From a virus: a stretch of 64,000 nt of DNA. The DNA lies in IMG/VR virus record IMGVR_UViG_3300035670_000038, positions 1 to 64,000 of that record; one strand, given 5' to 3'. The translations under genes were made by a program, and so were the position numbers. The notes below the pieces were generated by a model, which ran no database searches, was not told the DNA's origin, and saw nothing but the letters and a program-made list of their open reading frames with translations. Shown in pieces: positions 48,214-64,000 of the stretch; position 1 is the stretch's first letter, and the number at the start of each line of letters is the position of its first letter.

Positions 48214-48214
48214 T

Positions 48215-49522: not shown

Positions 49523-49902
49523 TGGCAATTGAAGAAATTAGAAGTACGTTGGGGATTCGTTCCTTCGTATCTAGAGCAGATTTAACACCAGGTAAAGTTA
49601 TTCAGTTCACATACGATGGTGAACAAAAATACGCACTGGTGTTAAATCCCGAATGGGAAGGTAAACTCCACGCACTTTCTATTAAAGATGTAAATCTTTC
49701 TAAATTTACAGAAATAAGAAAGTTGGTAGGTTCAGATGTTGATGGACAAGTATTATATTCTAAGTTTAGAAATTCAAGTTTAGTCGCGGATAGACCTTAT
49801 CGAACCTATTTATTATCAAAGGTATCTACGTTACGTGAAGTGTTTGTAAAAGAAGAAGTATTAAAGAAAGCTGAAGTAACGGAGAATATGTATGGGGAAT
49901 AA
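49522..49902 (+). CDS. Hypothetical protein (weak resemblance to DNA end-protector gp2 family)
   Basis: PGKVIQFTYD...YRTY pattern. Confidence 0.45.
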   Translation: MAIEEIRSTLGIRSFVSRADLTPGKVIQFTYDGEQKYALVLNPEWEGKLHALSIKDVNLSKFTEIRKLVGSDVDGQVLYSKFRNSSLVADRPYRTYLLSKVSTLREVFVKEEVLKKAEVTENMYGE

Positions 49903-50047
49903 CACATACCAACACCCACTTACCAATCTAAATTACGATAAACCAATAAATTTACAGAAGCTAATACCTAAAAGGGAATGGTGGACTGTTTGGTATTATA
50001 TCTTTACTGGTAAGATGATTGACTTAAAAAAAGAAAACAATAACTAA
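49892..50047 (+). CDS. Hypothetical small protein
   Basis: 51-aa ORF filling the gap; not in track. Confidence 0.35.
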   Translation: MGNNTYQHPLTNLNYDKPINLQKLIPKREWWTVWYYIFTGKMIDLKKENNN

Positions 50048-50066
50048 TATTTAAAGGAAGGGTTAT

Positions 50067-51092
50067 ATGACATACGAAGGTAATGTAAGTAAAAAACCAC
50101 TGAACACAGCGGAGAAAGTCGCTGTGGTTTTCGGTGGTTGTGGTTTTATAGGACACCATCTAGCTCGTAGATTACAACAAGAAGGATATTGGGTCAGAGT
50201 TGCTGACATCAAACCCCCAGAACATTGTGAACTTTCTACTTTCGCAGACGATTTCTATCACGGAGACTTGTCAAATGAAGGTATGACGTACAACGCTCTC
50301 AATCTTGGTAGAACCGATATTGAGGTATATCAACTTGCCGCGGATATGGGTGGTGCACAATATATCTTTAGTGGTGATAATGACGCAAATGTAATGTCAA
50401 ACTCCGCAGCTATCAATCTGAACGTTGTTCGTTCGATGATACGCTTGAAGTTAAAGAAGGTATTCTACTCATCGTCAGCATGTATCTATCCAGAACATAA
50501 CCAGATGGACCCTGACAATCCCAATTGCGAAGAGAGTTCGGCATATCCCGCAAATCCAGATTCGGAATATGGATGGGAGAAATTGTTTAGTGAACGCCTT
50601 TATATGTCATTCAAGAGAAACTATGGTATCGAATGTCGTATTGCACGATTTCATAATATCTACGGACCAGAAGGTACGTGGAGAGGTGGTAAAGAAAAGG
50701 CACCCGCAGCTCTCTGTCGTAAGGTATTGTTTACCCCAAGTGGTCGTTCAATAGAAATGTTTGGAGATGGTAAGCAGACCCGTTCATTCTTATATGTAGA
50801 CGAATGTGTTGAAGGTATTCTTCGATTGATGCGGTCTGATTATTGGAAGCCAGTTAATATTGGTTCGGAAGAAATGATTTCCATCAATGACTTTGCAAAG
50901 ATGATTATGGAAGTTGCTGGTAAGGAACTAGATATTGAACACATTCCAGGCCCACTTGGTGTCCGTGGTCGTTCTTCTGATAATAGACTTGTTCGTGAAG
51001 TATTGGGATGGGAACCAAATGCTCCACTTCGTGAAGGTATAACCAAGACATACAACTGGATTAAGGAAGTTGTAGAGAGTGAAAAGACATGA
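50067..51092 (+). CDS. GDP-mannose 3,5-epimerase-like SDR
   Basis: LAADMGG, YSSSACIYP, YGWEKL, RFHNIYGP.GTW.GGKEKAPAALCRK. Confidence 0.85.
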   Translation: MTYEGNVSKKPLNTAEKVAVVFGGCGFIGHHLARRLQQEGYWVRVADIKPPEHCELSTFADDFYHGDLSNEGMTYNALNLGRTDIEVYQLAADMGGAQYIFSGDNDANVMSNSAAINLNVVRSMIRLKLKKVFYSSSACIYPEHNQMDPDNPNCEESSAYPANPDSEYGWEKLFSERLYMSFKRNYGIECRIARFHNIYGPEGTWRGGKEKAPAALCRKVLFTPSGRSIEMFGDGKQTRSFLYVDECVEGILRLMRSDYWKPVNIGSEEMISINDFAKMIMEVAGKELDIEHIPGPLGVRGRSSDNRLVREVLGWEPNAPLREGITKTYNWIKEVVESEKT

Positions 51093-51925
51093 TTACGCAT
51101 GTTGGGATAGGAAACTCTGGACGATTTGGTAATCAAATATTCCAACTTGCTGCATTGATTGGTATTGCAGAAAAGAACGGATATGATATAAAGATTCCCA
51201 TAGAGAATACTGATAATCCATTTACATTTTTCGATTTGGCAAAACAACAAGCCGAACCAACTGGTATGGAACTTCGTAGACCATTTCTTATCCCAGACGA
51301 ATACTTTTCTCCATTTACTGACATCGCATCTGTGGTCAAGCAACGATATCAAGAACCATTCTTTCACTTCAATGGTGCAACATTAGATATTCCCGACAAT
51401 ACAGATATTGCTGGATTTTTTCAAAGTGAAAAGTATTTCAAACACGCAGAACAAACGGTTCGTGAAGTACTTACATTCCGTCCAGAAATAAGACAACAAG
51501 CTCAAATAGAATTGGCAAAGGTCAAGGACGATGCACCACGAGTGTCTATCCACGTTCGTCGTGGAGATTATGTAGCAAACTCGGCAAATCATACGGTGAC
51601 GGGTATGGAGTATTATGCTGAAGCTATTAGCAAGTTCTTTTCAAATGAATCATATCGATTCGTTGTATTCTCCGATGACCCAGAATGGTGTAAGGAAATG
51701 TTTGAAGGTGGACATATCGTAGACATCAATAACTCATATGTTGAGATGTGTATGATGAGTATGTGCGACCACCATATTATCGCAAATAGTTCATTCAGTT
51801 GGTGGGGAGCATGGTTAAATCCAAACCCAAAGAAGATTGTCACTGCACCCTCACTCTGGTTTGGTCCGAACCTTCGTCATAATAGTATTGTAGACATTCT
51901 ACCTGATGAGTGGTTTTGGATATGA
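51089..51925 (+). CDS. Alpha-1,2-fucosyltransferase family (GT11)
   Basis: GRFGNQIFQ, FQSEKYF, HVRRGDY, FSDD, NSSFSWW. Confidence 0.92.
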   Translation: MITHVGIGNSGRFGNQIFQLAALIGIAEKNGYDIKIPIENTDNPFTFFDLAKQQAEPTGMELRRPFLIPDEYFSPFTDIASVVKQRYQEPFFHFNGATLDIPDNTDIAGFFQSEKYFKHAEQTVREVLTFRPEIRQQAQIELAKVKDDAPRVSIHVRRGDYVANSANHTVTGMEYYAEAISKFFSNESYRFVVFSDDPEWCKEMFEGGHIVDINNSYVEMCMMSMCDHHIIANSSFSWWGAWLNPNPKKIVTAPSLWFGPNLRHNSIVDILPDEWFWI

Positions 51926-52521
51926 GATTAAAAGAATTTTATTATCAAATGGCAGAAGTAGAAGGTATTGGATTTTCTGATAAAGGTGACCGTCATCCAA
52001 CACACAAACACTTTTATATTGACATTTATGATGGAATGTTTTCTGCATGGAAGGATGAACCTGTTAAGTTGATGGAACTTGGTATAGCTTCTGGTGCAAG
52101 TTTATTAATGTGGTCACAGTTCTTTACAAAGGGACATATCCTTGGTCTTGACATCGTAGAACCTGTTCGTAAAGAGTATTTGGAAAAATTACCAAATGTT
52201 GGAATGATTTTTGGTGATGCATACAACAATGATAATGCTAAATACCTCGTAGAAAACTTACCAAAGCAAGACATTTTTATTGAAGATGGTGCACACGATA
52301 TAGATAATCAAATTACAGCACTACTGAAATATAATACACTCGTTAGACCAGGTGGATATTATATTTGCGAAGATTTATATATTGCAAATCTTGCAAGATA
52401 TCTCACCGAAGGTGTCTATCAAATAAACAATAGAAATTTTACAACCACTATATTTGACCAACATCGTCGTATCAATGGTTTGTATGACGATGTTATGGTT
52501 ATCATTCAATTCTTAAATTAA
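51922..52521 (+). CDS. Class I SAM-dependent (sugar O-) methyltransferase
   Basis: SDK, ELGI..GASL..W, EDGAH, PGGYYICED. Confidence 0.8.
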   Translation: MRLKEFYYQMAEVEGIGFSDKGDRHPTHKHFYIDIYDGMFSAWKDEPVKLMELGIASGASLLMWSQFFTKGHILGLDIVEPVRKEYLEKLPNVGMIFGDAYNNDNAKYLVENLPKQDIFIEDGAHDIDNQITALLKYNTLVRPGGYYICEDLYIANLARYLTEGVYQINNRNFTTTIFDQHRRINGLYDDVMVIIQFLN

Positions 52522-52522
52522 T

Positions 52523-53299
52523 ATGAAGATAGCATTGTGTTTATCTGGACAACCACGGGGATTACCTTTATCACTTAAAATGTTAAAGGCAAATCTTGTG
52601 GGTATAGAAAACATGGATATATTCTTACACGCATGGTTTGACCCATCTACAATCGGTCAACCATACGATAGTGCGCAAGCACATCAACAAGGTCGTGTGG
52701 GATTAGTGCATCCACAAACAGAAGAAATGTTATTGGGATTAACCCCAAAAGATTATTTGTTTGAACCACAAAAAGAATTTCCGTTTGCACGAAAGTTTGT
52801 ATCACCACCAGAGGCAAACCAAGAAAGAATGGCAAGTATTTTCTATTCCATCTATACCGCAAATATGTTGAAGAAACGATACGAAATATTGAACGGATTC
52901 GAATACGATTTGGTAATTCGTGCACGATATGATTTGTGGTATGAACAACCTATCGATGTGATGGAATATTGGGAGCAGTCTAGAACACACATTGTTACAG
53001 CTAATAAGTTTCAAGGAATACGAAACGACCCTAATTTTCAGCAGGGTAGTTATACGATGACAGACATCTTTGCATTCTCTACATCAAAAAATATGAACGT
53101 ATTTTGTGATACTTATCCGCACTTCTCGTTTATTCATTCGCAGATTGATATTCCATATGGTGAAAATTATATCGGGTATAGAGTTCGTGTGATGGGTGGA
53201 ATCGAAGCATACTGTGCTCCATTTAATTATGAAATAATGCATCGTGTGGTCAATATAAACAATTTAGAAGAACTGGAAAAACAATATGCCGCGTACTGA
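52523..53299 (+). CDS. Putative glycosyltransferase-like protein
   Basis: KIALCLSGQPR, FLHAW, YDLVIRARYD. Confidence 0.55.
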   Translation: MKIALCLSGQPRGLPLSLKMLKANLVGIENMDIFLHAWFDPSTIGQPYDSAQAHQQGRVGLVHPQTEEMLLGLTPKDYLFEPQKEFPFARKFVSPPEANQERMASIFYSIYTANMLKKRYEILNGFEYDLVIRARYDLWYEQPIDVMEYWEQSRTHIVTANKFQGIRNDPNFQQGSYTMTDIFAFSTSKNMNVFCDTYPHFSFIHSQIDIPYGENYIGYRVRVMGGIEAYCAPFNYEIMHRVVNINNLEELEKQYAAY

Positions 53300-54158
53300 T
53301 TTTACACCAGATAATGTTGAACTCTGGATTTCCAACTGGCGGAGAAAGGAATTGATGGATGGATTCGCACGTCAGTGGTTAAATACATTTGACTTCGAAC
53401 GAGTCAATATTATCACCAATCACTCATCGGTCACTATTGATGACTTCGCAGATGACATCAAACCTCGTGTCAAGATTTGGAACAATGTAATGCGACACGA
53501 CTACGCAATCGGTCCAATGGTTGAGAATTATAATCAGGCATATGTTCATACCTTCCTCGCTGGTAAAAAGTATTGTATAACGGCACATGACAATATGATT
53601 ATCAAGGATGGGTGGGTTGACATTATCAAAGAAACTGATTATGATTTATATATGGCCCCACAAGGTGACCAAGTAACTTTGATGACATTGGAAGGATTAC
53701 GTTTCTTTGGTTGGTGGGATGAACGATATGCAACAAATGGAAACCACGAATTGGATTTCAGTACACGTGCATTACGTAGAGATTTAGGACATAATAGAGC
53801 ATCAATGGTTGATTATCACGCATGGCATAACTGGCCTGATAAGATAGATGTGGAAGGAGAAATTGTAAGTCCAATATGTAGAAATGGACATCCAGAATTC
53901 GGTGATGGGTTTCCATACCTTAGATGGAATGATATAGGACTGGATAAATACTGGACAAGAGCCAGTAAGCATGACGTTCCACAATGTGGACCCAAGACAC
54001 AGAAGTTTGAGAAGTTGACTTGGAACGATAGGAAGTGGAGAGGACAGGCACCAAACACTTTCAAGAATTTCGCAGAAGGACCAGCAGAACCAGAACTTGA
54101 TTGGTATCCGTGGTTAGATATAAATTCACTAGACTTTGACATTTGTAAAATAGTATAA
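53286..54158 (+). CDS. Putative GT-A glycosyltransferase
   Basis: HDN acidic motif, GWWDERY...ELDF; island context. Confidence 0.5.
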   Translation: MPRTDFTPDNVELWISNWRRKELMDGFARQWLNTFDFERVNIITNHSSVTIDDFADDIKPRVKIWNNVMRHDYAIGPMVENYNQAYVHTFLAGKKYCITAHDNMIIKDGWVDIIKETDYDLYMAPQGDQVTLMTLEGLRFFGWWDERYATNGNHELDFSTRALRRDLGHNRASMVDYHAWHNWPDKIDVEGEIVSPICRNGHPEFGDGFPYLRWNDIGLDKYWTRASKHDVPQCGPKTQKFEKLTWNDRKWRGQAPNTFKNFAEGPAEPELDWYPWLDINSLDFDICKIV

Positions 54159-54170
54159 GGGGAAAATTAA

Positions 54171-54806
54171 ATGTTATCACAAAAGATTCAGGCAGCACTC
54201 GAAGATATTCGTAACGGAAAACCAATCATCGTTGTTGACAGTTATGATAGAGAAAATGAAGGTGACTTGATGATTGCCGCAGAGAAGGCAACTCCACAAA
54301 CCTTGGCGTTTATCGCAAAGGAAGCACGTGGAATTATGTGTATTCCTACACCAAAGTTTATGTTGGACCGTTTGGAAATTCCAATGAGTCCATCAAACAA
54401 CAATGACAAGTTTTCTACTCCATTCACAGTTAGTATTGACGCACGTGATGGTGTCACTACTGGCGTAAGTGTTGAAGATCGTATGGTCACGATTGGATTG
54501 GTGTTGGATGAGAACACCAAACCAGAACAACTTGCGTACCCAGGTCACTTATTTCCACTTCGTCCTCGTCCTGGTTTATTAAAAGAACGTCAAGGTCATA
54601 CGGAAGCATCAGTTCAACTTGCGATGATGGCTGGAACGAAACCAGTGGCAATCATCTGTGAGATTATGAATGACGATGGTAGCATGGCTCGTATTCCAGA
54701 CCTCGAACCATATGCAGAGAAGTGGGGACTTAATATGATTTCTATTGATGAAGTCATCGAATACTGTAATGAAACTGGATGGGAACCACCATTTAATGTT
54801 GGGTAA
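54171..54806 (+). CDS. ribB: 3,4-dihydroxy-2-butanone-4-phosphate synthase
   Basis: DRENEGD, FTVSID, TTGVS..DR, PGHLFPL, RQGHTEA, ICEI. Confidence 0.95.
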   Translation: MLSQKIQAALEDIRNGKPIIVVDSYDRENEGDLMIAAEKATPQTLAFIAKEARGIMCIPTPKFMLDRLEIPMSPSNNNDKFSTPFTVSIDARDGVTTGVSVEDRMVTIGLVLDENTKPEQLAYPGHLFPLRPRPGLLKERQGHTEASVQLAMMAGTKPVAIICEIMNDDGSMARIPDLEPYAEKWGLNMISIDEVIEYCNETGWEPPFNVG

Positions 54807-54809
54807 ACA

Positions 54810-55496
54810 ATGCGTGTAGCAGTTGTAACTTCTCCAAGAACAGGTTCTTCGTTTTGTATAAAATTAATATCCGAATTACTAAATCTTGAAAACTATGAAG
54901 AAATTTTAAATGAGCAGTTATATGTTTTTGAAGATGATAGCCACGTTCGTATTAATACCAACATAACAAACGAAAAAATATTGGAGAAATTATTACACAC
55001 AAATGATTATGTTGTAAAAATAATGGCTTCGGAGTTGTTTGAGAGAAATTTTAATGTAAGTGATTTTCCGTGGGATAAGTTTGATTTAATCATACTACTA
55101 GAACGTGACAATATATTCGAGCAAATAACCAGTTGGTATAGTTTAAATTATTGGCAACAACGTGTTACAAATACTACTACCTCCGAATACAACATAAAAG
55201 ATAAATTTCTTAGATATACAATTGAATGCATAAAAAAATATCACATCGTAAAAGATTTGATAATCCAGAATAGAAATAAGTTTGTTGTGATGGAAAAAGA
55301 AAACATAATAAATGATGTATCTGTAATATTCGACACGCAAATCACAGATGATATAATACTTCGTGCAAGAAAAAAATTAGTTCCTGAATGTGATTTGAAC
55401 GATATTGATTACGAAGTAATAATGAGTAATCAAAATATAAAACAAAGAGTATTAAGTATATTGGAGCAAGAATTAAATGGAACGGATAGTAACTAG
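54810..55496 (+). CDS. Sulfotransferase-like protein
   Basis: SPRTGSS, E, LER..FEQITSW. Confidence 0.65.
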   Translation: MRVAVVTSPRTGSSFCIKLISELLNLENYEEILNEQLYVFEDDSHVRINTNITNEKILEKLLHTNDYVVKIMASELFERNFNVSDFPWDKFDLIILLERDNIFEQITSWYSLNYWQQRVTNTTTSEYNIKDKFLRYTIECIKKYHIVKDLIIQNRNKFVVMEKENIINDVSVIFDTQITDDIILRARKKLVPECDLNDIDYEVIMSNQNIKQRVLSILEQELNGTDSN

Positions 55497-56469
55497 AGCA
55501 TACAATAGATTCGAAATAGATGAAACCAGAGGTGTCATTCGTAAGTTGAGTGCTACCCCCCGGCTTCGTGATGAGATACAATATTATGTTAAGTTAGTTA
55601 ATGCCCATCCACGTGAAGCTACGTTCTTCCCAAGATTGTTTCAATGGTCAGCAGAGGGTGAGAATCATTGGATGGATTTGGAAATGTATGATTATCCCAA
55701 CTTAGGTAAATATCTCCTAGCAGAAGATATACTACCTGAATGGTATTCTGTTTTAGATAAACTAAAAAATATTCTTCTACACTGGTCTACAACGCATCCA
55801 TATTCTGTGTGGACAAAGGAAGAAATTCGTCAGGCAGCATTCGATATGTACATCACCAAAACAGAACGAGAACAAAAAGCATTCTATAACGGATGGAAAG
55901 ATAAACTTGATTGCATATTTCTTGACCAGATAAAAAATCATATAATCTATATTAACAAAAAAGAATATAAACCATTTGAAATTATTTGGTTGCAAGTACG
56001 AAAGTACATAGAAGAAAATATGTTGGAGTTTACACCTTCCCTTATCCACGGTGATTGTTGTTTTAGTAATATTCTATATGGTAAGGATAAGAAAATTATA
56101 CGATTTATAGACCCACGTGGTTCTTTCGGTAAAGATGGTATATACGGAGATATTAGATACGATGTGGCAAAATTGTATCACTCTGTGGATGGAACATATG
56201 AATCATTTATTACAGATAAATTTGAAGTATCAAGTAATGGTAATTTACATGATTTGATTCTAACAGGTCATATGTCAAGAATAGAAACCAGTCATGCGTT
56301 GGAAGCTTTTGAAAATACTTTCTTCCCGCAATTTAATAAGAAAGAAATTAAGATATTGCAAGGATGTATTTTTATTGGAATGTGTGCTCGTCACTATGAT
56401 AGTTTAGAAAGACAACACGCAATGTATCTAACCGGAATCCGTTTACTTAATGAGGCTATGGAACTATGA
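55477..56469 (+). CDS. APH/choline-kinase-fold phosphotransferase (capsule-locus type)
   Basis: TRAYN, IHGDCCFSNIL, FIDPRG, GDIRYDVAKL. Confidence 0.8.
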   Translation: MERIVTRAYNRFEIDETRGVIRKLSATPRLRDEIQYYVKLVNAHPREATFFPRLFQWSAEGENHWMDLEMYDYPNLGKYLLAEDILPEWYSVLDKLKNILLHWSTTHPYSVWTKEEIRQAAFDMYITKTEREQKAFYNGWKDKLDCIFLDQIKNHIIYINKKEYKPFEIIWLQVRKYIEENMLEFTPSLIHGDCCFSNILYGKDKKIIRFIDPRGSFGKDGIYGDIRYDVAKLYHSVDGTYESFITDKFEVSSNGNLHDLILTGHMSRIETSHALEAFENTFFPQFNKKEIKILQGCIFIGMCARHYDSLERQHAMYLTGIRLLNEAMEL

Positions 56470-57236
56470 ATATACTAGTATTGATGGCTGGTAGAGGTCA
56501 ACGATTCCGTGATAAAGGATACGATAAGCCAAAACCATTAATCGAAGTTAATGGTAAGACAATTCTTCAATGGACAACCGAATCATGCCCATACATCAGT
56601 CATAATGGTAAGGGACAAGGTGATTATATAAAACTCCACTTTGCAGTTCTCCAAGAGCATTTAGACGAAGGATTGGATAAATTTCTGTATTCCGTTTATG
56701 GTCGTGATATTGAAATTATTCCATTCAAGGAAGTAACCAGAGGTAGTTTAGATACCGCGATGCAAGCAGCATCTCGTATGTGGCATAAAGAATATCCATT
56801 GTTGGTATTAGATTCCGACAACAAATATAATGACAATGGTTTTAAAGATTTTGTTCGTGAAATAGTCTTTAAAAAGAACGCAATGGCAGTGGCATGCTTC
56901 GACAATCCAGACCAATCACTTCCTAATAAGTGGTCAAATGTAGATGTTCGTGAAGGAGTGGCAAAAGGAATTCGTGAAAAAGACGATTCGTGGGTTCATC
57001 ATCCCACAATGATTGGAATATTCTACTTTGGTCAAACTAAGTTCTTTAAGGAATATGCAAAGTTTATTATGGAGTTTCATAAACCAGTAGAGTTTAATGG
57101 GAACGCAGAGTATTATATGAGTATGGTTCCGTCTTATAATATCGGTATAAATACTCCTGTATATGTTCACAAAGTCACCGATGTTGTTCCACTTGGAACA
57201 CCAGAAGATGTTAAAAAGTTTGAGGAATCTATATGA
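56466..57236 (+). CDS. Sugar-phosphate nucleotidyltransferase
   Basis: LMAGRGQRF...PKPLI, DSD, EK, EYY, LGTPED. Confidence 0.85.
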   Translation: MNILVLMAGRGQRFRDKGYDKPKPLIEVNGKTILQWTTESCPYISHNGKGQGDYIKLHFAVLQEHLDEGLDKFLYSVYGRDIEIIPFKEVTRGSLDTAMQAASRMWHKEYPLLVLDSDNKYNDNGFKDFVREIVFKKNAMAVACFDNPDQSLPNKWSNVDVREGVAKGIREKDDSWVHHPTMIGIFYFGQTKFFKEYAKFIMEFHKPVEFNGNAEYYMSMVPSYNIGINTPVYVHKVTDVVPLGTPEDVKKFEESI

Positions 57237-57613
57237 TTTTTTGTTTTGACATTGATGCAACTATCTGTGAAAATAAAACTGGTGATATGACTTACGCAGA
57301 TGTTAAACCATTCCCAGAAGCATTGGAAACATTACGATGGTTACGAGCAGAAGGACACACCATTATTCTTCATACTGCACGACATATGAAAACTGGTGGT
57401 GGAAATCAAGGAAAGGTATTGAAATTACAAGGTAAAGTATTATTTGATTGGCTAGAAAAGTGGGATGTTCCATATGATGAACTTTGGTGGAGTAAACCAC
57501 ACGCCGATTTAACGATAGATGATGCAGTACATAGACACACAGATTGGGCAACCTCAATCTTAGCAATAAAAGATAGAATACGTAAAGGACCAAGAACCGT
57601 GGAGAATCCATAA
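57233..57613 (+). CDS. HAD phosphatase (EcbF/BcbF capsule-biosynthesis type)
   Basis: FDIDATI, HTAR, KP..D..IDD. Confidence 0.85.
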   Translation: MIFCFDIDATICENKTGDMTYADVKPFPEALETLRWLRAEGHTIILHTARHMKTGGGNQGKVLKLQGKVLFDWLEKWDVPYDELWWSKPHADLTIDDAVHRHTDWATSILAIKDRIRKGPRTVENP

Positions 57614-58446
57614 TGTCACAACCAACATTCTTTTTTGACACAGCAGACACCGACTATATCCGTAAGATTTGGGACAAGTTGGGTAAGTATATTGACGGTA
57701 GTTCCGTAATCGGAATAACCACCAACCCAAACGCATTGGCAAAGGTCAATTGCGATACACTTGAAAAGTTTGAAACACTTGTACCACAGATGACTTCACT
57801 TGTTGGAGAACTTCGTGGTGAAGGACCACAAGGATTGGTCTATGTACAAGTTCCAAATTCTACAATGAAGGATGAAGATATTCTTCGTTGGGCAACCTAT
57901 GTGAATGAGTTTAATGGAAACGGTGCAGCAATCGCATTAAAACTTCCTCATTTCAGTTATGTCCTTCGTTTATCTGGTGAACCTGAATTACAAAATCTTT
58001 TCCTAAATGTAACTGGTGTATCGGATGCAAATACAATCATTAAGGCGTTGAGTTACCAGAATGTATTCTTCGCAAGTATTATTCCAGGTCGTATGGAAGA
58101 AGTTGGTATTGATGCAAACGCACATCTCAAATATTTGGCTGACCAACAACTCCAACGTCACCAGAACATAATCGCTGGTAGTATGAGAACAATTGAAGGA
58201 TTGAAGAACTCTATCTTCTATCACACGGTTCCGACCATCGGTAGTCGTGTATGGGATTTGATTGATAAGGAAAATCGTTGGGAAGAATTTGCATCCTATT
58301 GGGAAACCACATATGAAGTCTCAGAAGAACCAAGTGCTGACTACACACCATTGGTTACAGATACGAATCTGGATTTAAGTAAGCAATTCTTTGACCAGAT
58401 GGATAAGTTGGGTGAATCACTTCATACGGAGTTTATGTCCAGATGA
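57613..58446 (+). CDS. Transaldolase/fructose-6-phosphate aldolase-like protein
   Basis: FFDTAD, GITTNP, LKLP (Schiff-base Lys), NVT, GR, AGSMR. Confidence 0.75.
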   Translation: MSQPTFFFDTADTDYIRKIWDKLGKYIDGSSVIGITTNPNALAKVNCDTLEKFETLVPQMTSLVGELRGEGPQGLVYVQVPNSTMKDEDILRWATYVNEFNGNGAAIALKLPHFSYVLRLSGEPELQNLFLNVTGVSDANTIIKALSYQNVFFASIIPGRMEEVGIDANAHLKYLADQQLQRHQNIIAGSMRTIEGLKNSIFYHTVPTIGSRVWDLIDKENRWEEFASYWETTYEVSEEPSADYTPLVTDTNLDLSKQFFDQMDKLGESLHTEFMSR

Positions 58447-59162
58447 ACATAATCATCCCAATGGCAGGTGAGGGGACTCGTGTAAAAAGCACAGTTCCCA
58501 AACCACTTGTCGAGGTTATTAGTGGAAAACCAATGATTGAGATGGCATTGGAATCATTAAACATTGATGGACATTATTGTTTTATTGTTCGTCGTTATAA
58601 CAATCAAGATTGGAATGTCGCACTTCGTGAAGCAATCCACAAAACGGTAGGAAATGCGGTGATTGTGGAAATCGACTATCTAACAAAAGGACCAGCGATT
58701 TCTGCATTACATGCACCAAATCTTTTCTTTAATGATGAAGATTTATTGGTTACCAACTGTGACCAGATAATGCATTGGGATGCAGACAAGTTTATCGACT
58801 TCACCAAGACAACAGATGCGGATGGTGCTGTGGTCACATATGAAACACAAACACCAAAGAATAGTTACGCAAGAGTTATATCGGACGAAGAACATCCTGA
58901 ATTTGATATTATAAAAGAAAAGGAAGTTATTAGTAAATATTCATTAAATGGTATTCATTGGTGGAAGCATGGAAAGAACTTTGCAAAATCAGTGGTGAAG
59001 ATGATGGAAAGTAAAGACACAGTAAATGGTGAATACTACGTTGGTCCATCATACAATTATTTAGATGGTACTAAGAGAGTTTACAATATAGATTCATCAG
59101 AACATTTTGCTGTTGGAACTCTGGAAGATATTGAACGATATAGGGTGATTTATGGACGTTAA
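58443..59162 (+). CDS. Second sugar-phosphate nucleotidyltransferase
   Basis: PMAGEGTR...PKPL, NCDQ, EK, NGEYYV.P.YN, GT.ED. Confidence 0.85.
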   Translation: MNIIIPMAGEGTRVKSTVPKPLVEVISGKPMIEMALESLNIDGHYCFIVRRYNNQDWNVALREAIHKTVGNAVIVEIDYLTKGPAISALHAPNLFFNDEDLLVTNCDQIMHWDADKFIDFTKTTDADGAVVTYETQTPKNSYARVISDEEHPEFDIIKEKEVISKYSLNGIHWWKHGKNFAKSVVKMMESKDTVNGEYYVGPSYNYLDGTKRVYNIDSSEHFAVGTLEDIERYRVIYGR

Positions 59163-59478
59163 ACGTATTGAGAATATGAAGGGTGGATGGTTTATTGGGG
59201 ACTTCGACCCTGCCGTTTTACGAACCCACGACTTTGAAGTAGGGTATAAGTTTCATCCAAAAGGTGAGAAGTGGGACAAACACTATCACAAACGAGCAGT
59301 CGAGATTACATATCTGATTCGTGGCAAGATGCAAATACAGGATAGGATATTGACTTCTGGTGATATATTCACTATACTTCCGTATGAAGTTGCAGACCCA
59401 ATTTTCTTAGAAGATTGTGAAGTAGTAATAGTAAAAAGCCCATCCGTTGTGGGTGACAAATATACTATAGAGGAATAA
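59152..59478 (+). CDS. Small cupin protein
   Basis: GWFIGDF.P, HYH....E, GD, K.PS..GDKY. Confidence 0.75.
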   Translation: MDVKRIENMKGGWFIGDFDPAVLRTHDFEVGYKFHPKGEKWDKHYHKRAVEITYLIRGKMQIQDRILTSGDIFTILPYEVADPIFLEDCEVVIVKSPSVVGDKYTIEE

Positions 59479-59481
59479 GTT

Positions 59482-60711
59482 ATGAGTGTTAATATTTTTA
59501 CACGTGATGTAGATTTATCAAAATATTTTGTTGTCAAGTATTTCTTAGTCGGTAAGACATCACTACGTGATGCTGCATGGAACTTGGCAATTGGACAAAG
59601 TATCGGCAATCCCAACAACAGAAGTGTGTGGGAAACCGACCAGATGTTTCTTGACCACAGTTGTTTCATTCTTGCAGACGAAGGGGAACTAAAATCAAAG
59701 ACTTCTGGTGAAGTTGAGATTGCTTTCCCACTCGCAAACATCAATCTTGAAGAAGATGGTGTGTCTCAAATTCTTTGCCATATCGCCGGTGGTCAAGTAG
59801 ATATTCTCGAAATTGAACAGTGCCACGTATTAGACATCACATTACCAGAAGAAATTGACCAGATGTTTACCCTCAAACCTGCGTATGGTATCACAGGTTT
59901 CCGTGAATTCAATTGGGTAGAAAATAAACCATTCTTCGGTGGTATCATCAAACCCAAGGTTGGTATGAGTCCAAAGGTATTGTTGGAAGCTGTGAAGGAA
60001 ATGGTTGACGGTGGTGTGAACTTTATCAAGGAAGATGAGTTACTTGGTGACCCATCACACTGTTCACTAAAAGAACGAGTTCCACTCATCTCTAACTGGT
60101 TAAGAAAGAATTGTCCAGAGGTAATGTATACCTTCTGTATCAATGGTGATAGTCCTTACGCACTCCAACGAGCACAGTTCGTAGAGGATGAAGGTGGACT
60201 TGGTGTTCACATCAACGTGTGGAGTGGGTTGGGTGTCTATCGTGCAATTCGTAAGCAGAATCCTAGACTCTGGATTCATTTCCAGAAGTCGGGTGATAAG
60301 TTCTTTACTGACAGACGAGCACCAAATCATATCTATTGGCCTGTTATCTGTAAGATTGCAGGATGGTCTGGTGCAGACTCTATTCACGCAGGTATGATTG
60401 GTGGATATATGAACCAAGACGATACTGAATTGAAGGACGCACTAAAGGTATTGTGGAAGTATAATGTTATCCCAGCACTCAGTTGTGGAATGCATCCTGG
60501 ATTAGTTCAACACATCAACACTTTACTTGGTAGTAATGATTGGATGGCAAACGTTGGTGGGGCGATGCACGGACACCCGATGGGAACCAAGGCTGGTGGA
60601 TTGGCAATGCGCCAAGCTATTAGTGGATTCCACGGACCAGAGTATGAAGCTGCAATCAAGAAATGGGGATTCAAAGAAGTAAACCCTGATTTACAATATA
60701 GAATTTTTTAA
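59482..60711 (+). CDS. RuBisCO-like protein (large-subunit fold, probably non-carboxylating)
   Basis: GGIIKPKVG, GGVNFIKEDE, GADSIHAG, PALSCGMH, VGGAMHGHP..G..AMRQA. Confidence 0.9.
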   Translation: MSVNIFTRDVDLSKYFVVKYFLVGKTSLRDAAWNLAIGQSIGNPNNRSVWETDQMFLDHSCFILADEGELKSKTSGEVEIAFPLANINLEEDGVSQILCHIAGGQVDILEIEQCHVLDITLPEEIDQMFTLKPAYGITGFREFNWVENKPFFGGIIKPKVGMSPKVLLEAVKEMVDGGVNFIKEDELLGDPSHCSLKERVPLISNWLRKNCPEVMYTFCINGDSPYALQRAQFVEDEGGLGVHINVWSGLGVYRAIRKQNPRLWIHFQKSGDKFFTDRRAPNHIYWPVICKIAGWSGADSIHAGMIGGYMNQDDTELKDALKVLWKYNVIPALSCGMHPGLVQHINTLLGSNDWMANVGGAMHGHPMGTKAGGLAMRQAISGFHGPEYEAAIKKWGFKEVNPDLQYRIF

Positions 60712-60723
60712 TAGGAATATACA

Positions 60724-61380
60724 ATGGTCACCCAAGACATCCTTAATGCAATATCAAGAACCCCAACAGACATCTACGGATTGAAATGGGCACCTTCGGT
60801 AGAACCTACTATTGGTAATGATGTGGATTGGATTAATCCAACTCGTGGAAATTGGTCAATTCATTGGAGTGCAGCTAATGATATAGCACTTCGTGAAGCA
60901 TGGTCACGATGTGAGAGTTCTCCAAAACTTATTGTTGAAATCGGTGTACACCGCCCGGAAAGAAATGACGAAGGACGTTCTTCCACAAGTACGTTACTCA
61001 GTTTAAAGGATGACGATTGTATGTACATTGGTATAGATTTAGCAGACAGAACATTCTTAAACGATATGGGTAAGAATATATTTACCATCCAAGGTGATTC
61101 ATCAAACAAGAATGAAGTGTATAAATTGATGGAATGGTATGGTAAAGAAACTATTGATTTTATGTTTGTAGATGGATGGCATTCGATTAATCAATGCTTA
61201 CGAGATTGGCAATATTGGGAAAGAATTTCAAACACAGGTGTTATGGCGTTCCACGATACAAATTATCATCCAGGACCAGTTGCACTTCTTGACGCTGTAG
61301 ACGAATCGATATTTGATATACAGATATTTAATCGTGATGAAGATGACGCCGGTGTTGCATACGTAAAACGTAGAGGTTAA
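60724..61380 (+). CDS. Class I SAM-dependent methyltransferase (Methyltransf_24-like)
   Basis: VEIGV, GDS, FVDGWHS, FHD. Confidence 0.8.
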   Translation: MVTQDILNAISRTPTDIYGLKWAPSVEPTIGNDVDWINPTRGNWSIHWSAANDIALREAWSRCESSPKLIVEIGVHRPERNDEGRSSTSTLLSLKDDDCMYIGIDLADRTFLNDMGKNIFTIQGDSSNKNEVYKLMEWYGKETIDFMFVDGWHSINQCLRDWQYWERISNTGVMAFHDTNYHPGPVALLDAVDESIFDIQIFNRDEDDAGVAYVKRRG

Positions 61381-61381
61381 T

Positions 61382-62293
61382 ATGGCAAAGGGTTTGATTT
61401 CAATATTTACATTACCGCACGAGATTGATAATCTTCAAACAACGTTATACAATCTTCGTAGAAACTATGCGGTGATGTCTGGGCACGAATTCGGATTTGA
61501 CATAACTCTGTGTTTAAGTGATGAACTTACAGATTGGAATACTTCACAATTATCTAGAGAATACTTTGCAAGTAAGTATCGGCAAATTGTAGATAGTTTG
61601 TGTGATTGGGCAACGTTAGAAAGTATCAAGATTGAATATGGAAACACTATTCTTGGATGTGTGTCGCAACGTAGACACTCATTAAAATTCTTGAATAAAT
61701 ATGATTTCACGATGTGGTTAGACAATGATATGTTTTTCAATGATTATCTGTTGGCATATGTTGGTACATCGGTAAATATGTTATTAGAACAAGGTATAGA
61801 ACACTATGTTCTCACACCACAGATTACACGGCAGTGGGATGAAACGTGGGATGTCATTGTCAACAAAGATTTGTTAGATAGACCACTCAATGACAATTTA
61901 ACCGCCGATGTATTTGACTTGGGTTTAACACCGAGTGGTAATGTTGGATTACGACCAATAGAAACCTTTAAAGCTGCGGGTGGATGGTGTACAACAATTA
62001 GTAATGATTTGTTAGAACTTACTGGTATTCCAGATTCATTCGGTCATTACGGATTGGAAGATACATATGTCTTAGTGTGTGCAGATTTACTTCGTAGAAT
62101 GAATCGTAAAGAAAAACCACAACAGTTTGTAATTGACAATTTGATTGTTGGTGAAAACCACAGATATCAAACTAGTGATTACTTGAAGAATCATCTTGTA
62201 TCTTTCGATAGAAAAGATGAGTTTAGACAAATAGCAACAAACAACTTTAATAGTGAGATTGAAAAGTTTATCCAACGGATGCTTCAACAATGA
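61382..62293 (+). CDS. Putative GT-A glycosyltransferase
   Basis: WLDND, GGW, YGLED. Confidence 0.6.
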   Translation: MAKGLISIFTLPHEIDNLQTTLYNLRRNYAVMSGHEFGFDITLCLSDELTDWNTSQLSREYFASKYRQIVDSLCDWATLESIKIEYGNTILGCVSQRRHSLKFLNKYDFTMWLDNDMFFNDYLLAYVGTSVNMLLEQGIEHYVLTPQITRQWDETWDVIVNKDLLDRPLNDNLTADVFDLGLTPSGNVGLRPIETFKAAGGWCTTISNDLLELTGIPDSFGHYGLEDTYVLVCADLLRRMNRKEKPQQFVIDNLIVGENHRYQTSDYLKNHLVSFDRKDEFRQIATNNFNSEIEKFIQRMLQQ

Positions 62294-63048
62294 AAATCTT
62301 TTACAGAATATCAGAATCTACTAATTCACAACACGCAGCTGCAAGAACGTGGCAAGTGAAACTTCCAAATGCAACAAAAAAGAATTGCTTACTCAATACG
62401 ATGGAATGTTTTCCAACCGCAGAGATAAAAGTGTTTGTAGACTCAATTACCGATGAAACGTGGAATTGGTTACACACTCTCCCACGAATCACTATCCAGA
62501 AGATTAATGAAGGTTCTGATGCAAAGTCTATGCGGGTGTTATTGAAGGAAGCAGTATTATTAGAAGATGATAATCAAATCGTATTGTTCCAAGAAGATGA
62601 TTATCTATATCTACCTGGGTCAGAGAAGAAGATAATAGAAGCATTAAACTATTCTCACTACGCTACTGGATATTTACATCCCGACAAGTTTTGGCATCCA
62701 AGTCGTGGTGGTAATCCATTCACTCCGATGGATAATGTGTCCGAAGCAACACAAGTCATAAAAACTTCTGACCATTTCTGGATGGTTACAAACTCCACAA
62801 CAAACACATTCGCAACCACGGTTGGTGTATTAAAGGAAGATATTGATGTGTGGATGTGGGGAACAGAAGATTTAATTAATACAAAAGACTTCGCAATCTT
62901 TCTTAAACTTCGTGAGAAGGGTCGAGCATTGGTGCAACCACTACCATCATTAGCAACACATTGTCTCAAAGGATACGAAGCACCTACTGTTGGATTAGAT
63001 ATTGATTCTTGGGAAAGCATACAACCCTTGACACCAACCACAGAGTAG
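62290..63048 (+). CDS. Putative GT-A glycosyltransferase
   Basis: FQEDDYL, HPDK, STTNTF, ATH. Confidence 0.6.
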   Translation: MKIFYRISESTNSQHAAARTWQVKLPNATKKNCLLNTMECFPTAEIKVFVDSITDETWNWLHTLPRITIQKINEGSDAKSMRVLLKEAVLLEDDNQIVLFQEDDYLYLPGSEKKIIEALNYSHYATGYLHPDKFWHPSRGGNPFTPMDNVSEATQVIKTSDHFWMVTNSTTNTFATTVGVLKEDIDVWMWGTEDLINTKDFAIFLKLREKGRALVQPLPSLATHCLKGYEAPTVGLDIDSWESIQPLTPTTE

Positions 63049-63056
63049 TTTATATT
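63028..63056 (+). promoter_or_regulatory. sigma70-type promoter overlapping the TATTTATA motif
   Basis: TTGACA-17 nt-TATATT. Confidence 0.7.
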
Positions 63057-63089
63057 TATATCTTAGAACCCTTAACATAATATATTATA

Positions 63090-64000
63090 ATGATTAATAA
63101 AGTATTAATTACGGGCGTAGGTGGACTATTGGGTTCACGACTCGCAGATTGGATTTTAGCAAATAAACCAGGTGTAGAAGTTATTGGTATTGACGATTTT
63201 AGTGGTGGATATAGAGAGAACGTTGACCCACGGGTAAAATTGTACGTAATGGATTTGGGTAAGCAATCCGCAGAACGTATCTTCGACGAACACAGACCCG
63301 ACCTCGTGTATCACTTCGCAGCATATGCCGCAGAAGCATTGTCTCCATTCATTCGACAATATAACTATGTAAACAATCTTCTTGCAACTGCAGGGATTGT
63401 TAATAACTGCATCAAGTATGACGTAAAGCGTATTGTCTTTACTTCATCTATGGGTGTGTATGGCTTCGGTGCAAACCAACCTCCGTTCCACGAAGATATG
63501 GCACGAGCACCAATCGATCCATATGGTATTGCAAAGGCAGCGTGTGAACAAGATATCGAAGTGGCTGGAGTCCAACACGGATTAGATTGGTGTATCATCC
63601 GTCCACACAACGTGTTCGGTGCAAAGCAAAACATTTGGGACAGTTACAGAAACGTTCTTGGTATCTGGATGTACAAGCATCTTACTGGTCAACCGTTAAC
63701 TATCTTTGGTGATGGAGAACAAAAACGTGCATTCAGTTGTATTGATGACTCATTAGAACCACTCTGGAATGCTGGAACCTATGAGAAGGCATCCAAGCAG
63801 ATTATCAACCTTGGTGGTATTCACGAATATAGTATCAACATAGCAGCACAGACATTGATTGGGGTTATGGGTGGTGGTCGAGTCAAGTATCTCCCACCCC
63901 GTCACGAAGTCAAGTACGCATATCCAACGTGGCAGAAGTCGGTTGATATTCTTGGGTTCCAACACAAGACCGATTTGTATGAAGGATTACAGAAGATGTG
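63090..64000 (+). CDS. NAD-dependent epimerase/dehydratase (SDR), 3'-truncated by window edge
   Basis: Not in track; VLITGVGGLLG, FTSSM, PYGIAK (YxxxK), GDGEQKRAF. Confidence 0.9.
   Translation, partial: MINKVLITGVGGLLGSRLADWILANKPGVEVIGIDDFSGGYRENVDPRVKLYVMDLGKQSAERIFDEHRPDLVYHFAAYAAEALSPFIRQYNYVNNLLATAGIVNNCIKYDVKRIVFTSSMGVYGFGANQPPFHEDMARAPIDPYGIAKAACEQDIEVAGVQHGLDWCIIRPHNVFGAKQNIWDSYRNVLGIWMYKHLTGQPLTIFGDGEQKRAFSCIDDSLEPLWNAGTYEKASKQIINLGGIHEYSINIAAQTLIGVMGGGRVKYLPPRHEVKYAYPTWQKSVDILGFQHKTDLYEGLQKM

Follow-up and report, generated by a model that had tools for sequence, protein, structure and literature searches.

An uncultured phage encodes a RuBisCO-like protein with replaced carboxylation residues beside a sugar-phosphate nucleotidyltransferase

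Introduction

To our knowledge, the roles of the RuBisCO superfamily so far are carboxylation and catabolic or salvage reactions. One clade of RuBisCO-like proteins (RLPs) carries the name IV-GOS, from Tabita. In the GOS paper, 65 sequences from the ocean are assigned to new RuBisCO groups (PMC1821046). In Rhodospirillum rubrum and Rhodopseudomonas palustris, an RLP and an adjacent cupin are described as acting in consecutive steps (PMC5893883). A "Form IV-like" clade of phages and Beckwithbacteria is described by Jaffe, Castelle, Dupont and Banfield (2019, Mol Biol Evol, PMC6389311).

Here, the fold, kept and replaced residues, purifying selection, clade, gene linkage and fusions of a phage RLP are reported. 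On balance, the protein is probably a functional, dimeric, Mg2+-dependent, non-carboxylating enzyme that supplies an activated-sugar pathway for a surface glycan.

Results

The window is a stretch of 64,000 nucleotides, positions 1–64,000 of IMG/VR virus record IMGVR_UViG_3300035670_000038, which has 131,302 bases and is ~67% complete. Phage origin is indicated by PHROG matches, including phrog_1645 "virion structural protein" (9.3e-92), CobS/CobT-like genes, DnaB, ribonucleotide reductase and a family B polymerase. In the 131-kb record, Pfam Terminase_6N had no match, nor did Gp23, for which the controls were also without a match. No tRNAs were found in the window. The RLP (tblastn) and 20 kb of sequence (megablast) matched none of 50,697 cultured-phage records, a set that may omit records close to the window and so is not evidence of absence. 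The RLP gene and neighboring features are listed in Table 1.

Table 1. Features of the RLP locus in the window
Feature	Coordinates	Strand	Evidence
Glycan gene island	45833..63998	+	Pfam scans
DUF7796-like protein, 258 aa	52523..53299	+	Pfam DUF7796 4.3e-6, under cut-off; DUF7796-like family profile 8e-66
Second nucleotidyltransferase paralogue, 256 aa	56466..57236	+	Pfam NTP_transferase 1.2e-5; nucleotidyltransferase-family profile 2.7e-35
HAD-type capsule-biosynthesis phosphatase, 126 aa	57233..57613	+	NCBIfam TIGR01689 3.2e-16, under cut-off
Weak transaldolase/fructose-6-P-aldolase-like protein, 277 aa	57613..58446	+	Pfam TAL_FSA 1.9e-4, under cut-off, full-length
Sugar-phosphate nucleotidyltransferase, 239 aa	58443..59162	+	Pfam NTP_transf_3 4.8e-7, NTP_transferase 6.5e-7
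Small metal cupin, 108 aa	59152..59478	+	Conserved H-x-H...E motif; profile, AlphaFold2, Foldseek
RuBisCO-like protein (RLP), Form IV-like clade, 409 aa	59482..60711	+	ATG start; ORF, Pfam, PDB, AlphaFold2, residue table
Methyltransferase, 218 aa	60724..61380	+	Pfam Methyltransf_24 2.4e-6; immediately 3' of RLP

The RLP is confirmed as a real, intact RuBisCO large-chain homologue, the open reading frame being present as the preliminary description had it. Pfam PF00016 matches residues 147–315 (7.6e-33; 114.5 bits against a cut-off of 30.1), and the N-terminal RuBisCO domain has a weak Pfam match only. Among PDB sequences there are 99 distinct matches at E<=0.001, led by RLP 3nwr_A (1.4e-32) and form III 2cwx_A (5.8e-31). 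A structure prediction, which the preliminary description had proposed as a check, is RuBisCO-like: the AlphaFold2 model (pLDDT 91.1, pTM 0.89) has an N-terminal alpha/beta domain and a C-terminal TIM barrel, placing the protein in the RuBisCO large-subunit superfamily. Its best Foldseek match is 2d69 (TM 0.82, 27% identity), with 2cwx likewise at TM 0.82; TM values against RuBisCOs and RLPs are 0.79–0.85, and identity to solved RLPs is at most 28%.

The gene is under purifying selection, with dN/dS of 0.053–0.056 against its three nearest relatives. Across 20 RLP sequences with identity down to 36%, 29 columns are invariant; this set adds new residues Q39, H243, N245 and Y309, which lie in loops that build the RuBisCO active site. 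A dimer is predicted with an ipSAE of 0.92 against 0.00 for the best control, a mark that 20 of 30 proteins with a solved paired structure attain, compared with 1 of 23 with a solved single-chain structure. The dimer runs had at least 90% contact agreement and partner pLDDT of at least 88, with loops 38–42 and 102–107 predicted to contact 157–162, 245–252 and 270–275 of the partner. Since RuBisCO dimers are already solved, this score may come from model memory.

Residue equivalences were taken from a MAFFT alignment of 115 sequences, 15 of which carry a form III-type RuBisCO label from NCBIfam. Every motif string quoted in the preliminary description (IKPK, KEDE, IHAG, GQSIG, IAGG, HFQK and GGYM) is in the translation. 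The alignment agrees that K175/K177, K201/D203/E204, H327, S379 and G403/G404 are kept. Given as RuBisCO residue and RLP residue, the kept lysines are K175=K157, K177=K159 and K201=K183, the kept acids D203=D185 and E204=E186, and the other kept positions H327=H302, S379=S334, G381=G336 and G403/G404=G359/G360. All of these are kept in 38–42 of the 42 clade members. The carbamate and metal ligands K183, D185 and E186 are each present in 41 of 42 rows, the sole miss being a fragment.

All four residues that we take to serve the addition of CO2, hydration and cleavage are replaced, E60 by G38, N123 by G104, H294 by Q268 and K334 by Y309, and R295 is K269. The alignment restores none of the four. 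The by-eye changes N123 to G, H294 to Q, R295 to K and K334 to Y thus stand, as does the loss of E60, but not its replacement by Q: E60 aligns with G38, and Q39 is position 61. Further changes are H298 to D272, T65 to N43, W66 to P44 and G380 to C335. The two RuBP phosphate sites are not both kept in full: of the residues that presumably form them (T65, W66, R295, H298, H327, G381, G403 and G404), the first four are changed and H327, G381 and G403/404 kept. Across the clade, G38 and Q39 are each found in 42/42, G104, Q268 and Y309 each in 41/42, and, less fixed, K269 in 34/42 and D272 in 30/42. In the same alignment, form III references have E60 in 15/15, N123 in 13/15, H294 in 13/15 and K334 in 12/15, and OiaX-like rows keep these four in 15–19 of 20.

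The 42 RLP rows are monophyletic (SH-aLRT 99) and separate from the groups that resemble form III, MtnW and OiaX, a placement that refers to labelled groups only, as labelled references for IV-Photo, DeepYkr, form I and form II are absent from the tree. OiaX-like proteins form a separate group of 20–22 rows, and MtnW-like rows another. NCBIfam scores are far under cut-off for form III TIGR03326 (151.1 bits against 497.45), the other RuBisCO models NF003252 (138.9 against 438) and NF010002 (86.3 against 489), the MtnW/YkrW models NF007095 (95.3 against 409) and TIGR03332 (65.8 against 513.6), and the OiaX model NF042437 (113.6 against 700); the RLP therefore nests in no labelled characterized group. 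The suggestion of a distinct clade holds for separation from these groups and not for novelty: Jaffe et al. (2019, PMC6389311) had already published the clade. A Beckwithbacteria protein (L102, 50% identity) lies inside the 42 rows, and the RLP fits the phage/Beckwithbacteria Form IV-like clade, matching the description published there.

Besides Beckwithbacteria, clade members occur in cells of SAR11, Verrucomicrobiota, Actinomycetota, Azospirillum, Bacteroidota, Elusimicrobiota, Saccharibacteria and DPANN. Individual cellular loci lie on a complete Pelagibacter chromosome (L100), on a SAR11 contig where pheS/pheT/lepA adjoin the RLP (L120) and on a Verrucomicrobiae chromosome (L124); others belong to Azospirillum oleiclasticum (L130), Nonomuraea rosea (L128), CPR bacteria and DPANN archaea. 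GT17 and GT61 genes adjoin a SAR11 copy. Relatives are very common in aquatic metagenomes, with 2625 at E<=0.001 among 4974 candidates.

In the phage record, the RLP lies in an island that encodes GT4 glycosyltransferases, a GDP-mannose 4,6-dehydratase (Gmd), SDR epimerases, a GT11 fucosyltransferase, methyltransferases and a RibB homologue. The cupin gene overlaps its upstream neighbor by 11 bases and stops 3 bases ahead of the RLP start. H44 and H46 are nearly invariant in the cupin alignment and E51 is conserved; the profile matches phosphomannose isomerase 7zvm (6.5e-5), and the AlphaFold2 model (pLDDT 95.4) matches 7zvm and KdgF, each at TM 0.65. By profile, the nucleotidyltransferase matches NDP-sugar pyrophosphorylase 4evw (2.1e-35), with mannose-1-P guanylyltransferases and RmlA at ~1e-10. 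Lineage-specific accessories are the HAD-type phosphatase, found only in close relatives L003–L006 and L010 (5/9 loci), and the transaldolase-like gene, in 5/9 close loci. Against PDB sequences, the transaldolase-like protein had no match at E<=1 and a kinase-like neighbor no usable match. By single-linkage BLAST clusters, the methyltransferase is found at 24 of 81 viral loci and at position +1 in 21 of these.

Partners were counted by six-frame HMM search within 3 kb of the RLP at 81 viral loci, a sample resting on the best 80 of 273 matches, and 44 cellular loci. The nucleotidyltransferase was found at 77/81 viral and 40/44 cellular loci, the 107–108-aa cupin at 72/81 and 14/44, a GDPD-like mini-phosphodiesterase at 60/81 and 25/44, and a DUF7796-like gene at 38/81 and 7/44, counts that are not phylogenetically independent, many viral loci sharing synteny by descent. 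The GDPD-like (150-aa) and DUF7796-like (260-aa) proteins are two unrelated families. No partner was found at 4 of the 44 cellular loci, one with full flanks (L096) and three on short or cut contigs. In the same count, the cupin was absent from the SAR11/DPANN subclade. The GDPD-like gene had 0 matches in the 131,302 bases of this ~67% complete record. The nucleotidyltransferase is the sole constant partner. Among 130 genomes from the order to which Azospirillum belongs, a cupin profile search found the cupin in only 3. Conserved neighbors of the RLP include neither an acid-sugar kinase nor an acid-sugar dehydrogenase.

Fusions were also found. P0122 joins an RLP (residues 14–419) to a nucleotidyltransferase (430–658), and its 90% cluster comprises 128 proteins, with lengths of 667–671 aa in 12 of 15 listed members. 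P0285 (546 aa) joins a GDPD-like domain to an RLP and is present on 4 contigs. Outside the clade, RuBisCO is fused to an IF-2B-family isomerase (P0156 and P0163).

Discussion

The residues kept and lost suggest that the RLP would carry out enolization chemistry, with carboxylation not expected, as the preliminary description had also predicted. Because the CO2-handling residues are lost and a sugar-activating partner is adjacent here and fused elsewhere, sugar reshaping is the most likely role, rather than carbon fixation. We infer the chemistry, order of steps, substrate and glycan destination as follows. The candidate substrate class is a mono-phosphorylated keto-sugar, which would be bound by the RLP and enolized at the conserved carbamyl-Lys/Asp/Glu metal site. 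Returning the proton elsewhere would amount to isomerization or epimerization. The small metal cupin next door, probably a second isomerase, may then receive the product, as may the partner nucleotidyltransferase, which would add a nucleotide. The activated unit would go to the glycosyltransferases and methyltransferases of the surrounding island. The neighborhood could, however, partly mirror the structure of the glycan island rather than pathway membership.

More tentatively, and with somewhat less than even confidence, the RuBisCO fold may have been recruited for making sugar donors in general. Proton transfers would move the carbonyl of a common keto-sugar phosphate, such as a pentulose 5-phosphate. 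This branch of the fold, whether or not the cupin isomerase takes part, would supply a phosphate ester for direct activation by the fused or adjacent nucleotidyltransferase. Neither a kinase nor a mutase would be needed on this route to an unusual activated sugar, which phages, SAR11, CPR bacteria and DPANN archaea would use for surface glycans.

Four other roles were weighed. A true CO2-fixing RuBisCO acting as a carbon-fixation auxiliary gene is scarcely credible: the pipeline family name is its only support, E60, N123, H294 and K334 are all replaced in 41–42 of 42 clade members, every RuBisCO model scores under cut-off, and the scanned neighbors include no small subunit, phosphoribulokinase or carboxysome gene. 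A role in acid-sugar catabolism, as an OiaX/OiaT-type decarboxylase or transcarboxylase-hydrolase whose substrate is a 3-oxo acid-sugar phosphate, would account for the OiaX model match and for the top PDB sequence match, 3nwr, which we take to belong with the OiaX-like/NonPhoto group. That model match is far under its cut-off, the OiaX-like rows are separate and keep the four residues that the RLP clade does not, and the acid-sugar kinase or dehydrogenase is missing from the conserved neighborhood, making this role very unlikely.

The cupin gives methionine salvage a better case. The RLP would be a 5-methylthioribulose-1-P 1,3-isomerase or DK-MTP-1-P enolase and the cupin a methylsulfurylase, with the phage recycling methylthioadenosine or a related 5-deoxy-pentose. 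The close spacing of the two genes, the high cupin count in the viral sample (from the best 80 of 273 matches) and the consecutive steps of the DeepYkr RLP and cupin described in R. rubrum and R. palustris (PMC5893883) favor it. Both MtnW models score well under cut-off, however, MtnW-like sequences are a separate tree group, and no mtnA-, mtnP- or mtnK-type gene (IF-2B, MTAP families) is among ~70 scanned neighbors. The pathway needs no nucleotidyltransferase, yet that is the constant partner, and the SAR11/DPANN subclade has no cupin; we consider this role unlikely. Nucleotide or pentose salvage, comparable to the AMP pathway that form III RuBisCO serves in archaea, is quite improbable. Here the RLP would act without carboxylation on a ribose- or ribulose-bisphosphate-type compound freed by the phosphodiesterase. 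Form III gives the best curated-model and structural matches, both the GDPD-like-RLP and the RuBisCO-isomerase fusions are compatible, and CPR bacteria and DPANN archaea, described as using RuBisCO for nucleotide salvage (PMC6389311), carry relatives. Against it, RuBP-binding T65, W66, R295 and H298 are changed, the last to D in 30/42, no deoA or e2b2 gene is among the scanned neighbors, glycan genes surround the RLP, and this record is without a GDPD-like gene.

Sugar activation for a surface glycan remains the preferred reading. The pairing with a nucleotidyltransferase and the fusions give a concrete, assayable hypothesis for a published clade, and cultured carriers of the RLP exist (Azospirillum oleiclasticum, Nonomuraea rosea and a Pelagibacter strain). 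If true, the RuBisCO superfamily would gain a biosynthetic role, and a novel building block would be indicated in glycans at the surface of SAR11 and its phages. Annotation is affected as well. The preliminary description warned of mislabelling by automated pipelines, and JGI records of close relatives do carry the name "ribulose-bisphosphate carboxylase large chain"; relatives tallied as carbon-fixation genes would distort surveys of viral auxiliary genes. Within the literature covered by our search, no paper linked RLPs to nucleotidyltransferases and polysaccharide or to glycerophosphodiesterases, and none since 2019 linked RLPs to viral auxiliary genes.

The closest described proteins are the Form IV-like RLPs, which, in the published account of the clade, are likewise on large uncultured IMG/VR phage contigs, group with Beckwithbacteria, are distinct from other RLPs and diverge at key residues (PMC6389311). 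That account has cellular members in Beckwithbacteria only and leaves function open; many more cellular groups are found here. What is new for the clade is gene context, the tie to a nucleotidyltransferase by adjacency and fusion. The DeepYkr RLP and cupin methylsulfurylase of R. rubrum and R. palustris, as described, also pair a non-carboxylating RuBisCO fold with a small cupin acting on the RLP product (PMC5893883), as is proposed here. Both RLPs plausibly isomerize a mono-phosphorylated ketose by proton transfer, but the phage cassette has a nucleotidyltransferase, lies among glycan genes and has no methionine-salvage gene among the scanned neighbors.

The Pyrococcus horikoshii form III RuBisCO (2cwx/2d69), the best structural match, shares the Mg/carbamate triad, K175/K177, H327, S379 and G403/404. 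It keeps E60, N123, H294, R295, H298 and K334 and carboxylates RuBP, whereas the phage RLP has G, G, Q, K, D and Y. RLP 3nwr of Burkholderia fungorum, the best PDB sequence match, and the OiaX-type RLPs are non-carboxylating members of the fold; the OiaX type differs in its tree position, its model score and its mostly kept E60, N123, H294 and K334. Bifunctional type II phosphomannose isomerase/GDP-mannose pyrophosphorylase has a nucleotidyltransferase domain and a C-terminal cupin. The same order, nucleotidyltransferase then small metal cupin, is found in the phage, where the nearest named structures to the cupin are archaeal phosphomannose isomerases. In the phage these are separate, overlapping genes with weak similarity (E ~1e-5, TM 0.65), and the RLP is a third partner.

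RuBisCO-like protein and active site

The RuBisCO-like protein (RLP) matches 99 distinct PDB sequences, led by RLP 3nwr (1.4e-32) and form III RuBisCO 2cwx (5.8e-31). Its AlphaFold2 model, built from a 20-row alignment (pLDDT 91.1, pTM 0.89), has form III RuBisCO 2d69 (TM 0.82) and the RLPs 1tel (0.81), 3nwr (0.79) and 2oem (0.79) among its best Foldseek matches. Folding of two copies gave an ipSAE of 0.92 versus 0.00 for the best control, contact agreement of at least 90% between runs and partner pLDDT of at least 88; the ipSAE mark is reached by 20/30 proteins solved as pairs and 1/23 solved as single chains, and the pass is a likeness that may be model memory because RuBisCO dimers are solved structures. 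N-domain loops 38–42 and 102–107 contact the partner's 157–162, 245–252 and 270–275 in the two-copy model. The gene is under purifying selection, with dN/dS of 0.053–0.056 against the three closest relatives, a rough value because dS is ~1.5. For six pairs at greater distance, saturation prevented an estimate.

Residues were compared in a 115-sequence alignment. Besides the window protein it contains 41 relatives and 73 further members of the RuBisCO family, of which 72 are cluster representatives and the last, L136, is a cellular outlier. Equivalences to spinach form I numbering were set with 15 of these 73 sequences as reference group; the five of its members that were tested hit models of form III or of the large subunit. 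Members P0191 and P0182/P0162 score above the NCBIfam form III and subfamily cut-offs, respectively. The preliminary description had listed Mg/carbamate residues as kept and CO2-fixation residues as lost. Those listed as kept are all retained: K175 (K157 in the RLP), K177 (K159), K201 (K183), D203 (D185), E204 (E186), H327 (H302), S379 (S334) and G403/G404 (G359/G360), as is G381 (G336). The alignment also bears out the changes of N123 to G104, H294/R295 to Q268/K269 and K334 to Y309. E60 is lost as described, but its replacement is G38 rather than Q; Q39 occupies position 61. Further replacements are T65 to N43, W66 to P44, H298 to D272 and G380 to C335. Members of the window protein's clade share these replacements: G38 and Q39 occur in 42/42 rows, G104, Q268 and Y309 in 41/42 (the single miss is a fragment), K269 in 34/42 and D272 in 30/42. 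H243 and N245 (41/42) are additional clade-specific residues at the end of barrel strand 4 (model strand 241–245), at positions that are mostly Met and Asp/Asn in other groups.

Judged from these residues, the RLP keeps what RuBisCO needs for Mg2+ binding and proton abstraction beside a carbonyl, and lacks what it needs for CO2 addition, hydration and cleavage. At H298, which we take to be an RuBP-binding position, the residue is now acidic, which suggests a mono-phosphorylated substrate.

Clade assignment

The RLP was searched against 1.84 billion cluster representatives, giving 873 matches at E ≤ 0.001. About twenty full-length representatives show 38–55% identity (E below 1e-60), after which identity drops to ~30%. 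In a maximum likelihood tree (quick search, LG+G4, 115 rows), the window protein falls in a 42-row clade with SH-aLRT 99, and the other 73 rows lie beyond a branch also supported at 99. Viral and cellular rows are interleaved within the clade, including a Beckwithbacteria protein (L102). Outside it, NCBIfam labelling of twenty of the 73 rows identified a form III-like group, one group nearest MtnW (317–323 bits, cut-off 409) and one nearest OiaX (324–431 bits, cut-off 700); several groups are unlabelled. The window protein scores far under every curated NCBIfam cut-off.

The initial observation is real and was correctly read: the suggested distinct clade is separate from the groups labelled here. 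It agrees with the "Form IV-like" clade that Jaffe et al. described in 2019, and is therefore already in print. That paper (PMC6389311) and its preprint describe a non-redundant set of ~90 phage sequences, taken from IMG/VR and groundwater, that grouped with Beckwithbacteria; their key residues were divergent and their function was unclear. Some came from Myoviridae, and one from a curated ~200-kb phage genome. Already in 2007, the GOS paper reported new groups that included 65 RuBisCO homologues from the ocean (PMC1821046). None of the papers searched connects RLPs, of this clade or otherwise, with a nucleotidyltransferase or with polysaccharide synthesis.

Gene neighborhood

The RLP gene lies in a glycan island (table), and the final three genes before it overlap one another or nearly abut.

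Features of the glycan island, in window order, and of the whole phage record (G000)
Feature	Coordinates	Strand	Remarks
GT4 glycosyltransferases			first in island
GDP-mannose 4,6-dehydratase (2.2e-125), SDR epimerase, GT11 fucosyltransferase (1.8e-29)	47236-51925	+	
Methyltransferases			
DUF7796-like protein			
RibB homologue	54171-54806	+	full-length; Pfam 8.7e-75
Kinase-like ORF			
Nucleotidyltransferase, HAD capsule phosphatase, transaldolase-like ORF			transaldolase-like match weak
Second nucleotidyltransferase	58443-59162		directly before cupin
Cupin	59152-59478		108 aa; directly before RLP
RLP	59482-60711	+	409 aa; Pfam RuBisCO_large 7.6e-33
Methyltransferase, two glycosyltransferase-like ORFs, another SDR			after RLP
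CobT-like gene	G000 71464-73725		phrog_5298, 3.2e-9; beyond window
Virion structural protein	G000 77049-78437		phrog_1645, 9.3e-92; beyond window
CobS-like gene	G000 79215-80381		phrog_249, 1.5e-23; beyond window

The dehydratase, epimerase and fucosyltransferase genes probably form a GDP-fucose branch of the same island. The RibB (3,4-dihydroxy-2-butanone-4-phosphate synthase) homologue is common only to the five closest relatives, and no other riboflavin genes were seen near it. RibB yields a keto-phosphate, which could serve as input to the cassette of RLP and partners.

The window covers bases 1–64000 of an IMG/VR virus record that is 131,302 bases long (CheckV completeness 67), with nearly all ORFs of at least 150 aa on the + strand. 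PHROG matches to a DnaB-like helicase, ribonucleotide reductase, family B DNA polymerase, the virion structural protein and CobS/CobT-like proteins support a large tailed phage. Two Pfam searches gave no match to a T4-type capsid or terminase. The structural protein gene sits between the CobT-like and CobS-like genes.

Among PDB entries, the nucleotidyltransferase profile has its strongest match in 4evw (2.1e-35), an NDP-sugar pyrophosphorylase that is uncharacterised; mannose-1-P guanylyltransferases and RmlA follow at ~1e-10. The cupin (model pLDDT 95.4) retains the H-x-H...E metal motif and is weakly similar to small phosphomannose isomerases of archaea (7zvm, TM 0.65) and to KdgF; its nearest Atlas clusters are 70–100% viral. 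A third partner, a GDPD-like 150-aa protein, carries the HR...EN...E-D...HD motifs of glycerophosphodiester phosphodiesterases (top PDB match 3i10, 1.9e-4) and was not found in the record of the window phage.

Neighbors were counted as six-frame matches to HMMs of four families within 3 kb of the RLP, in 81 viral loci (the best 80 of 273 relatives plus the window) and 44 cellular loci with a strong RLP match, out of 45 fetched. The nucleotidyltransferase is near the RLP in 77/81 viral and 40/44 cellular loci, the cupin in 72/81 and 14/44, the GDPD-like protein in 60/81 and 25/44, and the DUF7796-like protein in 38/81 and 7/44. One viral and four cellular loci have no partner, and three of those four are short or cut contigs. 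Because of common descent, these counts cannot be taken as independent events, but the pairing recurs in three different gene orders and in viruses as well as two domains of life. Carriers that are clearly cellular include a complete Pelagibacter chromosome (L100), a 2.28-Mb Verrucomicrobiae chromosome (L124), Nonomuraea rosea (L128), Azospirillum oleiclasticum (L130; GDPD-like, RLP, cupin, nucleotidyltransferase) and a SAR11 contig (L120) with pheS, pheT and lepA, then the cassette, and flanking GT17 and GT61 genes. In a SAR11/DPANN subclade, a second nucleotidyltransferase replaces the cupin.

The same RLP, at 52–54% identity, also occurs on five contigs that bear a giant-virus bin label (GVMAG; L048, L059, L063, L064 and L067); in L059, nucleotidyltransferase-family proteins of 537 and 353 aa and the GDPD-like mini-phosphodiesterase are upstream. 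The cupin occurs in only 3/130 genomes of the order of Azospirillum, and in two loci of that order (L145 and L146) it lies between two nucleotidyltransferase paralogues with no RLP in the 3.3 kb examined.

Longer matches from the cluster-representative search were checked for fusions. P0122 (667 aa) joins a clade RLP (14–419, 550 bits) to the partner nucleotidyltransferase (430–658, E 4e-85), in agreement with Pfam (RuBisCO_large 9.1e-42, NTP_transferase 1.7e-13). The 90% cluster of P0122 comprises 128 sequences, drawn from assemblies in ENA, JGI, Tara and MGnify, and 12 of the 15 members listed are two-domain proteins of 667–671 aa. P0285 (546 aa) is a GDPD-like-RLP fusion on 4 contigs of up to 62.8 kb. 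Outside the clade, P0156 and P0163 have an IF-2B-family domain before RuBisCO (Pfam 2e-53 and 4.3e-52), a family that includes ribose-1,5-bisphosphate and methylthioribose-1-P isomerases; P0215 has a TIR domain before its RuBisCO-family protein, and P0257 (1265 aa) has an APH-type kinase domain after its RuBisCO-family region.

Proposed pathway

In the most economical pathway, the RLP would enolise and reprotonate a keto-sugar phosphate, the cupin would isomerise it further in the window phage lineage, the partner nucleotidyltransferase would activate the product with a nucleotide, and island transferases would consume the activated sugar. We consider this scheme, with its putative chemistry, substrate and step order, moderately likely. 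The MTA-isoprenoid shunt (PMC5893883) is a precedent for the succession of an RLP and then a cupin.
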